A stretch of 23,762 nucleotides of DNA from Nitrospinota bacterium (GTDB lineage Bacteria > UBA8248), in assembly GCA_030754595.1 (NCBI GenBank), contig JASLZZ010000092.1, positions 1 through 23,762 of the forward strand. The letters are read 5' to 3'. Position 1 is the first letter of the stretch. Every line of letters starts with the position of its first letter. A program made the position numbers. Shown here one piece after another: positions 9,001 to 12,000 of the stretch.

Positions 9001-12000
9001 GGGGATTGTCCATGTCCTTCTCGTCCAGCCCGGCCCCGTAGAGCATCGCCTGAGACGCCGCCTGAGAGGGCGGCTGGGTCACGCGCTGGCTGTATTGGTT
9101 CAATCCTGATTTCCGTTCCGGCATTTATATTGCCTCCCGACAAAATTTCCGGCCGCGCCGACCCTCTTACAGGAGAGTCGCTGGCGAACCGATCCACTTG
9201 ATTCTTAAATTCCAGACAACTTAATTTCAGAACAACTTAACTCCAGACAAGAGGGCTCGGCGGGCGCCGCCCTTCCCATTTATTTTTTGTCCAGATAATC
9301 CTGAAGAAATCCGGCCAGCGGCGTGCTCCGCCAGTCGAAACCGATTTCCCGCGCGGCCCGTTCGGTCTCATCGGCCGACATGCCGCTCTCCTCCGAAAGG
9401 TGCGCTAGCGAGCAAACCCCGGCCCGCCCTCCGCCTTTTCAGTGGACAAAGACCGAACCGTCGGCCTTGCCCTCCTGAATCGCCTTGCCGACACCGGCCA
9501 AGAGTTTATCGGTAAAATTCTTGAGCCCGGCCGGAATGTGAACATACTTCATACCGAGCTTTTCGGCCTCCGCCGCCGCCCGGTCGATGGGGAGCTCGGG
9601 CTGGTCTTCGCCCGGCAACCGGAGGTTGATAACCGTCTTCACCCCCCGCTCGGCCATTCCCCTGAGATCTTCCGGGGTGGGCTGTCCGCCGAAAAAAATA
9701 TCGTCCGAAGCTTGCTTGTAATCCATGAACTCTCCCCTCGGAATCACCCGAAGGCTCCCCGCTAGCCCCTTTGAATGATCTCCCTGTACCGCACGAGACG
9801 GCTGGAGCGTTCCTCGTCGCCCTCCCGATGATAGATTCCGATCAAGTTGTTGAGCATTCTCTCCACAATCCGCAGGTCCGGCGTCTCGTTTAAAAACCGC
9901 GGGTCGAAATGGTAACCCATCCCGCGCACGATATCGGTGCACTCCTCGGCGGAAACGACCTTTCCTCCGTCAAAGGGGTCGAGATAAACGGGCGTTCCGG
10001 GAACCTCGTACTTCAGGATGAAATGACCGGGCATCCCCACCCCGCGGAAAGGAAGGTCCATCCGCCTTCCGATCAGCATATAAACCGCCGCCAGCGAGAT
10101 CGGCATCCCCTCCCGGCGGTCGAGCACCCGGTTTAGATAGCAATTGTCCGGATCATAGTACTCCGTCCTCCCGCCCTTGAAGCCCAACTCTTCGTGAAGA
10201 TAATAGGCCGTGTGGCGGACGATCTCATCGGGGGCGCTCACGCCCTCCAGCCGGTAGCCAAGCTCCTTGGTCATCTGATCCAACTCGGCGACGCAACGGC
10301 CCAGATCCTCGAGCGGATAGCCGAACGAGGCGAGGAGAAAGACCCCTTCCTCGAGTTGAGGGCCGTCCGGTGCGGAGACCGCCCACTCCGAAAACGAGCG
10401 CTCAAGGCGCGAGTGATGAAAATCCACAAGGGCGGGCGGAGCGGATACCCTGCGGCCCTCGGTTCGCGTAAGCCGCTCCAGGATGCGCTCCAAATCCTCA
10501 TCGGCCATTGAGGCAATCTGCCGATCGAGTGCCTGGAAAGTGGCCTCCCGATCATCCTCCAGCAGCGTACAAATTGCATCGAGTTGCGTTTCGCTCAAAT
10601 TCACGGCGCCTCTCCCCATTCCCGCCCGGGACAAGGAACATTCGGTAAAAAAACCTATCTCCCTATGCTATTCTCCCGCCGTGAATAGCTCAATCCCCCC
10701 CATTAACCCCCTTTAGGGTCTTGGGCCGCCTCGGCCGCCCGAAATCCGCTCCGCACCGCCCCCTCGCAGGTCGCCGGGAGCCCGGTCGCGGTCCAGTCCC
10801 CGGCCAGAATCAACCCATCCACCGGGGTTTCCGCCGCCGTGCGGTGCGCCTGCTCCCCGGCCCCGTTCGCCCATGTGGCCGCCCTCTCCCGGACGACGAG
10901 AACCCGCCGCAGGCCGAAATCCGGCAGGAGCCTCCCCGCCGCCTCGCGGGCCGCCGATTCGATCTCGCTCCTCGGGGCCGAGGCGAGAGAATCCGCGCCG
11001 CCGCATAAAAAAGCGACCGGCGCATCAGGTTCTTTTTCCCCGGTCCTCAAGTCCCCGGCCTTCAAGCCCCCAGCTCCCGGGCGAAAGAGCCACTCCCACC
11101 GCTCGGCCACCAGGGCCTCATAGGCCGGGCCCGGGCAAGGATGATCGAGCCAAAGGTAGGCGGTTGCGATGGAAGCGGACCGGAGGCGGCCGAGATCGCG
11201 CCAGGGGCTTTTTCCCCCAAACGCCTCCGCCGGGAGGAGCCTGAGAAGAGCGGGCGGGGGGACGGCGGCGATCACCACAGACGCTTCGATCGACTCACCG
11301 CCCGAGAGAGTCACGCCGCGAACAGCGCCGCCCTCGATCCGAATCCTCCGGACGGGAGCGGCCATCTTCACCTCGCCTCCCGCCCGCCGGATCGCATCGA
11401 GGGCGCGATCCGCCCAAAAAGGCCCCAGCGCCTCCGCCGGCGCTCCCAGCGAAGCGCCCGCGAGCCCCGGCCCGAACGCTTCGCACATCACCCGGCGCAG
11501 CAGTTCACCGCTCCCCTCCCCGGCGGGCATGTTGAGCACCGCCCCCGAGAAAGGCTCCCAGAACCACTCGCGCTCTGAAGCGCCCTGTCCGAGACGGTCG
11601 AGCATTTGCTCAACCGTCTCACCCGCATTTTTCGATTCAGCGGCGGGCGGCCCCTCCTTTAGCACGCGTCGGAGACCCCGGGCGATCGATAAGCGCGCGG
11701 CGAGGCGGGGGCCGCGCCAGCGAAGAAGCGCGAGCAGCGAGGCCGGAGCGCCCCCCCGGGCGGGAAACGAGAGCCGCTCGTTTCGCACTCCGCCCCGGGC
11801 CGCTCCATCGGCCAGCCGGTAGGTGAGATCGAGCGAGGGCTCAAAGCGAAGAGAGGCCGAGGCGCCGATTCGGCCGAGAAATTCACGGAGGGCGGGATTC
11901 GCCTTCATGAAAAGGTGAGGTCCCCAGTCCAACTCGCGTCCGGACCGGGGGTCGGGAAAACTTCTGGCCCGGCCGCCGGGCGCCTTGGCCGCTTCGAGCA

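Follow-up and report, generated by a model that had tools for sequence, protein, structure and literature searches.

We describe a gene that very probably encodes a selenoprotein, with selenocysteine (Sec) predicted at codon 96 in place of the catalytic cysteine of a stand-alone DUF442/BLH_phosphatase protein. The gene lies in a 23,762-nucleotide stretch of a Nitrospinota genome, which was analysed as a whole and is called the window here. One minus-strand reading frame extends from an ATG at 9726 to a TAA at 9282-9280, and its sole in-frame TGA is codon 96. Under translation table 11 the gene breaks in two, a 95-codon piece and a 33-aa ORF at 9280-9381. Translation and alignment agree that these two short calls are parts of a single gene of 148 codons, with the TGA at the position of the catalytic Cys. 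The preliminary description had put this forward, together with the ATG start, its ribosome-binding site and the TAA stop, all of which were read in the sequence. Its selenoprotein interpretation is supported by the results below and needs a single correction: the active-site loop was given as H-U-x5-R, whereas it reads H-U-K-G-G-G-R, that is H95-U96-x4-R101, the DUF442 type.

Features of the predicted selenoprotein gene and its surroundings (positions in the window)
Feature	Position	Strand	Basis
Entire gene: 148 codons and a TAA stop	9280..9726	-	Translation with TGA read as U
In-frame TGA, codon 96, predicted Sec where homologues have the catalytic Cys (H-C-x4-R loop)	9439..9441	-	
Shine-Dalgarno-like GGGGAGAG, 3 nt ahead of the ATG (9726-9724)	9730..9737	-	Direct sequence reading
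Putative bacterial SECIS hairpin	9407..9428	-	RNAalifold, frozen synonymous sites, bSECIS criteria
Arg101 codon (CGG), arginine of the x4 loop; third base paired in the hairpin	9424..9426	-	
Cys105 codon (TGC), within the hairpin; possible partner of Sec96 (resolving or relay residue)	9412..9414	-	
Transglut_core2 (SirB1-like) gene, upstream, 35 nt away	9762..10634	-	Pfam PF13369, 157 bits

Conservation of the TGA was followed in 51 genomes from 15 genera of the phylum at E<=1e-20. The scan returned 57 full-length read-through homologues from 35 genomes and 6 genera, as reported earlier, and every one of them carries an in-frame TGA (56 carry one, a single homologue carries two). The TGA is residue 96 in 57/57, at identities down to 36%, so that the single column first claimed for four of four loci holds for the whole set. 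Mean pairwise identity is 55% before the TGA and 57% after it. Variability at the three codon positions is 0.25, 0.24 and 0.40 before the TGA and 0.16, 0.21 and 0.30 after it, the third position being the most variable on either side. Since both the identity and the codon-position pattern hold downstream, coding constraint persists past the TGA. A genome-wide pattern scan with the peptide GRAG[IV]CSLxH is clade-specific, and its reach is limited to the Sec clade.

Downstream of the TGA we found a putative SECIS hairpin within the coding sequence. A spacer of 10 nt (9438-9429) separates the TGA from the 5' arm (9428-9422, GGCGGGC), which is followed by an 8-nt loop (9421-9414) and the 3' arm (9413-9407, GCTCGCT); RNAalifold independently gives these same seven pairs. 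In the alignment 350 of 350 stem cells are paired, with three one-sided changes that are each neutral to pairing. No compensatory double changes occur in the stem among the aligned homologues, and the case for pairing therefore rests on invariance and one-sided changes only. Five conserved codons of the hairpin show no synonymous change across the homologues: codon 100 is GGG in 53/53, and codons 102 (GCC), 103 (GGG), 105 (TGC) and 106 (TCG) are each the same in 57/57. Most conserved codons outside the hairpin do vary, by 0.8-2.3 bits; those of F12 and H95 are less variable. Arg101 is invariant (57/57) and is encoded solely by CGG (35) or CGA (22), which give a G-U or an A-U pair with the partner U. 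The gene is thus an unusually clear example of an RNA signal that freezes synonymous sites within a coding sequence.

Published limits for bacterial SECIS elements are a loop of 3-9 nt and a stem of 4-16 bp, with a G among the first two loop nucleotides, a UGA-to-loop distance of 16-37 nt and an MFE of -7.5 kcal/mol or lower (PMC13188914, section 5 and Fig. 2 legend). All 57 homologues fall within all four published criteria, with a loop of 8 nt (CGGGRUYU type), a stem of 7 bp, G as the second loop nucleotide, a UGA-to-loop distance of 17 nt and an MFE between -8.3 and -10.7 kcal/mol; the hairpin had been claimed for four of four orthologues. A single-sequence fold of the region 3' of the TGA (-23.4 kcal/mol) is not more stable than shuffled sequences (z = -0.07). 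Stability alone is therefore no evidence for the hairpin, and comparative analysis was used instead. At gathering thresholds Rfam reported only a tRNA in the whole window.

The genome also carries the complete set of components for reading such a signal. A tRNA-Sec (contig C102, complement of 3896-3992), SelA (552 bits) and SelB (364 bits) are present, as had been stated before, and so is SelD, which has its own TGA. SelA was found in 49 of the 51 genomes of the phylum.

The assignment to DUF442/BLH_phosphatase is supported by the Pfam score and the best fold matches. The read-through protein matches BLH_phosphatase (PF04273) with 35.2 bits (cut-off 26.1) over residues 3-104, across the TGA, which agrees with the extent given earlier. 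As also described before, two related NCBIfam models stay below their cut-offs. TIGR01244 reaches 46.2 bits of the 85.85 needed, and the protein is therefore a relative of that subfamily model and not a member. Blh (NF040641) reaches 58.3 of 625 bits, over positions 2-129 of a 423-position profile only, the dioxygenase domain being absent. The closest Foldseek matches of a predicted model are the DUF442 structures 2f46_A and 3gxh_B (E about 2e-7, TM 0.60-0.61). This model has a mean pLDDT of 77.9, and pLDDT is below 50 in the P-loop (residues 99-104), so that it is silent on the geometry of Sec96 and Cys105. Like other DUF442 domains, such as the Blh N-terminus and that of Cupriavidus SQR, the protein has the short loop with the arginine five residues on, and the GQP, N-x-R and IP motifs. 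In contrast to them, it has Sec as the nucleophile and an additional invariant Cys at +9. It also stands alone, with neither a dioxygenase nor an SQR attached, and it lacks a signal peptide, whereas many Cys homologues have one.

Comparison with Cys-type homologues supports the identity of the TGA column. The earlier count, 36 of 36 homologues of at least 140 aa with Cys there, was not reproduced: the search gave 36 proteins in total, seven of them fragments, and all 24 that were aligned out of the 29 longer ones carry Cys. Among 150 representatives the column holds Cys in 135, Ser in six, Asp in two, Gly in one and a gap or fragment in six. Loop spacing in the 24 Cys homologues is x4 in 21 and x5 in two, and one lacks the Arg. 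A 162-residue metagenomic protein, P0038, which comes from short contigs only, is 48% identical over all 148 residues. It has Cys as the nucleophile where the Nitrospinota protein has Sec, and it retains G-R-A-G-V-C-S after it, including the equivalent of Cys105. In a quick tree a branch with SH-aLRT 99 has P0038 and the 56 included Sec forms all to one side of it, and P0038 lies in or beside the Sec clade.

What might such a protein do? By analogy with characterised relatives, we consider it somewhat more likely than not that it is a cytoplasmic sulfane-sulfur transferase of the PTP fold in which Sec stands for the catalytic Cys. The DUF442 domain of Blh takes sulfane sulfur from thiosulfate and passes it on to cyanide or glutathione (PMC5823870). 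In a Cupriavidus SQR, Cys94 of the DUF442 domain is essential and bears a persulfide beside Arg99, with the same x4 spacing (PMC6441731). Judging from the anatomy of the hairpin, SelB with Sec-tRNA(Sec) would bind the 7-bp, 8-nt-loop element that begins 10 nt past the UGA, and the ribosome would insert Sec at codon 96 rather than stop. If the chemistry follows that of Cys-type DUF442 domains, Sec96 would sit with Arg101 in the short H-U-x4-R cradle and attack a sulfane-sulfur donor (persulfide, thiosulfate or polysulfide). It would then hold the sulfur as an Se-S intermediate and hand it to an acceptor, and Cys105 may resolve or relay this intermediate. For the task of the protein in broader terms, we incline, if only modestly, to transfer of sulfur or selenium. 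The rhodanese-like selenoproteins (PF00581 forms 1-5, Table 1 of PMC13188914) set a functional precedent for the use of Sec in transferring sulfur. There, too, Sec replaces a nucleophile of the sulfur-transferase type in a basic-rich cradle. These proteins differ in belonging to an unrelated fold and family and in having UxxS, UxxG or CxU instead of H-U-x4-R, and the rhodanese domain PF00581 itself gave no match to our protein at E<=1.

The conserved cysteine also bears on another function, a thiol or selenol reductase in which Sec96 and Cys105 would pass through a selenenylsulfide cycle and reduce a sulfane compound or small oxyanion, for example arsenate, selenite or polysulfide, comparable to the arsenate reductases of the PTP and rhodanese folds. 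U96, R101 and C105 occur together in 57/57 homologues, and C105 is the sole Cys in 54 of them. Its equivalent in P0038 is found in a Cys form that needs no SECIS, and Cys at +9 is otherwise rare, with 2 of 135 Cys-type representatives as counted by eye from the alignment output. Furthermore, a redox pair of Sec and Cys is present in most catalogued selenoproteins (PMC13188914, section 7). Against this, no redox motif with the spacing U-x8-C is known. Cys105 is encoded in an arm of the hairpin, so that its invariance may in part reflect RNA constraint. Moreover, the conserved neighbours at 49 related loci include no thioredoxin, glutaredoxin or ars genes. We regard a reductase as an unlikely reading.

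A phosphatase that uses Sec as its nucleophile, be it a protein-tyrosine, a dual-specificity or a phospho-metabolite phosphatase, would agree with the fold. Many phosphatases are among the fold matches. The protein shares with Cys-based enzymes such as LSF2 (4kyq), Tk-PTP (5z5a) and VHR (1vhr) both the fold and a nucleophile that opens a loop leading into a helix. The glucan phosphatase LSF2 is the best PDB sequence match (E = 4.6e-5), and Pfam PTP-NADK is above its cut-off with 32.4 bits. Other PTP families match weakly; DSPc stays at 16.3 bits (cut-off 33.5). However, the x4 loop is one residue short of the C-x5-R phosphate-binding loop. Dual-specificity phosphatases have a general-acid Asp at +2 or +3 after the conserved Pro of the IP motif. 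At these two positions, counted from Pro65, none of the 57 sequences has an acidic residue, be it Asp or Glu. In addition, the DUF442 domains that have been characterised carry out sulfur transfer (PMC5823870, PMC6441731). Taken with this evidence, a phosphatase is improbable.

Could the TGA be a genuine stop, so that the locus is a pseudogene or holds two separate small genes, one of 95 codons and one of 33? It is treated as a stop under translation table 11 and in the public databases. The seven nearest database entries are indeed 95-aa fragments terminating at the TGA, as noticed before, and the 16 members of the public cluster for this gene are without exception fragments, 72-102 aa long. 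A second word-index search, made with the 95-residue fragment, added nothing to these. In 11 of the 57 homologues the normal stop codon is itself a TGA, with one further premature case. Yet a nonsense mutation is not expected at one and the same column in 57 genes of six genera with coding constraint downstream. A product of 95 residues would be missing the catalytic loop, what is conserved is not the start of the 33-aa ORF, and the genome has both the Sec machinery and a hairpin that fits. A genuine stop is very improbable on these grounds. The use of TGA as a normal C-terminal stop in these 11 homologous genes also indicates that the codon is not reassigned genome-wide. Insertion of Trp, Gly or Cys through an altered code or near-cognate suppression is hardly credible. 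Read-through by itself cannot identify the inserted residue, but no specific support favours any of the three; the column is that of the catalytic Cys in homologues, the hairpin is frozen, and tRNA-Sec, SelA, SelB and SelD are all encoded.

With Sec at codon 96 as the preferred reading, we compared the family with what has been catalogued. A DUF442/PTP-fold family is missing from the 2026 table of 119 selenoprotein families and subfamilies (PMC13188914), a negative result that does not extend to the BSepDB family table. The same table lists no Sec form of Cys-based PTPs, and NCBIfam has no selenoprotein model for the DUF442 family. The view that the family is uncatalogued thus holds for both resources. 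In the GOS paper the 26 mentions of "phosphatase" concern a PP2C domain in fusion with peroxiredoxin, which is unrelated. If the Sec assignment is true, the gene would represent a selenoprotein family and fold (PTP/DUF442) that are new relative to the 2026 catalogue. It would also correct a systematic annotation error, given that the public entries found for the gene are fragments of 72-102 residues. The Sec clade and P0038 would moreover form a natural Sec/Cys pair for asking what selenium gains in sulfane-sulfur chemistry.

The neighbourhood was compared at 49 related loci, where the conserved neighbours include no sulfur-metabolism gene. In the largest genus a gene of the metallo-beta-lactamase fold, about 1.2 kb from the second copy, was considered as a link to persulfide dioxygenase. 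It matches flavodiiron proteins and not ETHE1, and was therefore discarded as support for sulfur metabolism. A homologue of the upstream Transglut_core2 gene is present at 27 of the 49 loci and directly adjacent at 25. One may speculate that U96 and C105 form an Se-S relay for sulfane sulfur or for selenium itself, in what would be the first PTP-fold selenoenzyme and more than a simple counterpart of rhodanese, and that the upstream Transglut_core2 protein is its partner. We think this combination decidedly unlikely. Were it true, the protein could act, for example, as a perselenide or persulfide carrier in this nitrite-oxidiser lineage, either supplying selenophosphate synthesis or helping to detoxify reactive sulfur. 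The window carries, in addition, a second selenoprotein gene.

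We re-read the frame from sequence, and both the position (9280-9726, minus strand) and the gene calls of the preliminary description proved right. Translation table 11 divides the frame into two pieces, one of 95 codons and a 33-aa ORF. Reading through the TGA yields a 148-residue product in which the stretch V-H-U-K-G-G-G-R-A-G-V-C-S-L surrounds residue 96. The active-site loop is U-x4-R (U96, R101) and not U-x5-R, as had been proposed.

Coordinates of the Sec gene and of further features in the window
Feature	Position	Strand	Remark
Start codon ATG	9726	-	preceded by GGGGAGAG
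GGGGAGAG	9737-9730	-	5' of ATG 9726
Sole in-frame TGA	9441-9439	-	between ATG 9726 and TAA 9282-9280
33-aa ORF	9280-9381	-	second piece under table 11
Stop codon TAA	9282-9280	-	ends frame opened at 9726
NUDIX-squalene/phytoene synthase fusion, then HpnE-like flavin amine oxidase	10706-14298	-	fusion of 725 residues, NUDIX plus two synthase matches
TSP3-repeat protein	6015-7370	+	452 residues, bacterial TSP3 repeats
Second selenoprotein gene, DsbA-like ORF	16926-17561	+	211 codons; TGA codon 18 in U-P-Y-C
FmdA_AmdA (acetamidase/formamidase) ORFs	2937-3929, 3895-5007	-	adjoining, slightly overlapping; two stretches each

Searching all 51 of the phylum's genomes in six frames (E<=1e-20), we recovered 57 matches in 35 genomes from 6 of the 15 genera. 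Each carried an in-frame TGA (one in 56 matches, two in 1), which reproduces the earlier count, and rebuilt frames extended the common TGA column from four aligned loci to residue 96 in 57/57. Three weaker matches were a copy broken by TAA, a stop-free distant homologue and a fragment at the end of a contig. Translation continues past the TGA, since mean pairwise identity among the 57 homologues (55% before, 57% over 50 residues after) and the pattern of variability at codon positions 1/2/3 (0.25/0.24/0.40 before, 0.16/0.21/0.30 after) persist downstream. Terminal stops were TAG in 32, TAA in 13 and TGA in 12 (one of them premature); because TGA ends some of these genes, the genomes concerned continue to use it as a normal stop. 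The source genome encodes tRNA-Sec, SelA (552 bits) and SelB (364 bits), as had been described, together with SelD, and SelA was found in 49 of the 51 genomes. In the selenophosphate synthetase gene (L011, G000:C16:24543-25505, plus strand), a single TGA lies in frame close to the N-terminal end (G-G-*-G-S-K), hence SelD is a selenoprotein in the source genome too. Judged from gene anatomy (TGA, hairpin and Sec machinery), the UGA is probably decoded as Sec, and 9280-9726 is a well-supported candidate for a new selenoprotein, the Sec version of an enzyme family already known.

Single-sequence folding of the region after the TGA gave a stability no higher than that of shuffles (z = -0.07). RNAalifold on the alignment of all 57 read-through genes returned a single 7-bp stem with an 8-nt loop (arms GGCGGGC and GCUCGCU in the window), paired in 350 of 350 cells. 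Variation at three stem pairs was one-sided and always kept pairing (G-U to A-U in 22/57, plus two single cases); strict-sense covariation is absent, because none of the 57 sequences has a compensatory double change in the stem. The freezing of synonymous sites is stronger evidence for the hairpin than this pairing comparison. Among the 57 homologues, Gly100 is GGG (53/53), Ala102 GCC, Gly103 GGG, Cys105 TGC and Ser106 TCG (57/57 each), and Arg101 uses only CGG (35) and CGA (22); outside the hairpin, Gly, Ala, Pro, Leu and Arg columns that are just as conserved use 3-6 codons (0.9-2.3 bits). The published bacterial SECIS model allows a loop of 3-9 nt, a stem of 4-16 bp and a UGA-to-loop distance of 16-37 nt (PMC13188914). 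With G at loop position 2 and 17 nt from UGA to loop, the hairpin lies within all four limits of that model in 57/57, where only four orthologues had been compared before, and its MFE ranges from -8.3 to -10.7 kcal/mol in all of them. Loop variants are CGGGATTT (46), CGGGGTCT (5), CGGGGTTT (4) and two singletons. The putative SECIS is of textbook type, yet unusually frozen.

As previously noted, Pfam BLH_phosphatase (PF04273) matched residues 3-104 across the TGA, and NCBIfam Blh and TIGR01244 stayed below threshold. The bit scores and their cut-offs are 35.2 vs 26.1 for PF04273, 58.3 vs 625 for Blh and 46.2 vs 85.85 for TIGR01244. PTP-NADK likewise exceeded its Pfam cut-off, other PTP-clan families matched more weakly, and the NCBIfam search with the read-through protein hit no selenoprotein-specific model. 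An AlphaFold2 model of this protein, built on 12 sequences, reached a mean pLDDT of 77.9 (residues 99-104 <50). In Foldseek against the PDB, the predicted fold matched best both DUF442 structures, 2f46 and 3gxh (E ~2e-7, TM 0.60-0.61), followed by numerous PTP and dual-specificity phosphatases.

We aligned 24 of 29 longer database homologues (P0016, P0017, P0018, P0021 and P0024 were left out). H95 and a Cys at column 96 were invariant in 24/24, which bears out the claim that the TGA replaces the catalytic Cys. Their loop is x4-R in 21, x5-R in 2 and without Arg in 1; many carry N-terminal extensions, unlike the window's protein. When 1.84 billion representatives were searched with a profile, 7416 matched at E<=0.001. 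Among the best 150, the TGA column held Cys in 135, Ser in 6, Asp in 2, Gly in 1 and no residue in 6, four of these being ~95-residue fragments that end in V-H directly before it. The top match, P0038, is a 162-residue Cys form from short metagenomic contigs only, 48% identical across all 148 residues of the read-through protein and retaining G-R-A-G-V-C-S. A quick tree of 56 Sec rows (the truncated L072 was dropped) and 30 Cys rows chosen from the list top placed all Sec forms and P0038 on one side of a branch (SH-aLRT 99, length 1.04); within that group, P0038 may sit among the Sec forms or beside them. A scan of one genome per species (185,579 species) with the clade's own peptide pattern, which could detect this clade only, found 49 loci, assigned where a taxon was named to Nitrospinota, Nitrospinaceae or, in two cases, Candidatus Tectomicrobia. 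As far as searched, the Sec form is confined to part of one Nitrospinota family. In the public data, the window's protein falls into a cluster of 16 entries, each 72-102 residues long; one of them bears the name 'uncharacterized protein (TIGR01244 family)'.

Table 1 of a 2026 review comprises 119 selenoprotein families and subfamilies (PMC13188914); PF04273, TIGR01244, DUF442 and the PTP fold are absent from all 119 entries, and the word 'phosphatase' from the review's text. A full-text literature search never found DUF442 and selenoprotein together. Going by titles or abstract openings, none of the papers on PF04273, TIGR01244, BLH_phosphatase or DUF442 concerns selenoproteins, and going by listings, none naming Nitrospin* with selenocysteine describes this gene. 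BSepDB is constructed by homology to known families, and its main text, the part searched, contains no DUF442-family term. Within this scope the searches agree with the earlier view of an uncatalogued family, and a DUF442/PF04273 selenoprotein family appears unreported.

The DUF442 domain of Blh takes sulfane sulfur from thiosulfate and passes it to cyanide or glutathione (PMC5823870), and in the SQR-fused domain of Cupriavidus an essential Cys94 holds the persulfide within a basic pocket, next to Arg99, the same x4 spacing as U96/R101 (PMC6441731). Because these characterised Cys-type domains transfer sulfane sulfur, we favor a Sec-based sulfane-sulfur transferase, which would act via a Se-S intermediate; by analogy, such a role is plausible. 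U96, R101 and C105 are invariant in 57/57 homologues and C105 is the sole Cys in 54/57. This feature, special to the Sec clade, points to a possible Sec-Cys relay or resolving pair. This keeps alive a reductase using that pair, and C105 is retained in the Cys form P0038 as well, but its codon sits in the hairpin. A phosphatase is less likely, as the loop lacks one residue of the phosphatase length and 0/57 sequences have an acidic residue at Pro65+2 or +3, where the general acid of a phosphatase would be expected.

A Transglut_core2 (SirB1-like) gene precedes the Sec gene by 35 nt on its strand, and ilvD is the downstream neighbor; the HpnE-like amine oxidase gene and the NUDIX-synthase fusion are found further upstream. 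A Transglut_core2 homologue occurs in 27/49 related loci (directly adjacent in 25), and in these 27 the Sec gene also has ilvD next to it. The remaining 22, for the most part second copies from the largest genus, have none of these neighbors; in 4 of five sampled, a metallo-beta-lactamase-fold gene lies upstream. It resembles flavodiiron proteins rather than persulfide dioxygenase. With such neighbors, the context offers no direct functional clue. The region of the NUDIX-synthase fusion resembles a cluster for squalene (hopanoid-type) synthesis. The TSP3-repeat protein, ilvD's conserved neighbor in related loci, weakly matches the calcium-binding domain of binary-toxin B/protective-antigen type proteins.

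The window's gene occupies the Transglut_core2-ilvD slot, where genomes of the largest genus have their second copy; its sequence places it with their first copy, at a weak support of 82 (compared loci L123, L036 and L056). Identity of this gene to the same-genus genomes G047 and G048 is only 46-49%; L123 shows 49%, the value also seen for G047's copy, and its neighbors are 65-87% identical. Low identity beside conserved neighbors points to rapid evolution or to a paralogue having taken the gene's place. Among second copies, L072 (G024) carries an additional TGA at codon 132, a conserved Trp in the others, and the sole C-to-T change in the hairpin stem, and L073 (G025) is TAA-interrupted; some genomes seem to be losing one copy to decay. 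Genome G034 has a single copy only.

Of the DsbA-like selenoprotein ORF, table 11 recognizes no more than the portion that starts at 17001. The ORF matches Pfam DSBA, beginning at profile position 55, and, weakly, the NCBIfam Rcas_1661 thioredoxin-like (seleno)lipoprotein family, and a hairpin lies 3' of its TGA. The two FmdA_AmdA ORFs may be paired in tandem or may be pieces of one split gene.
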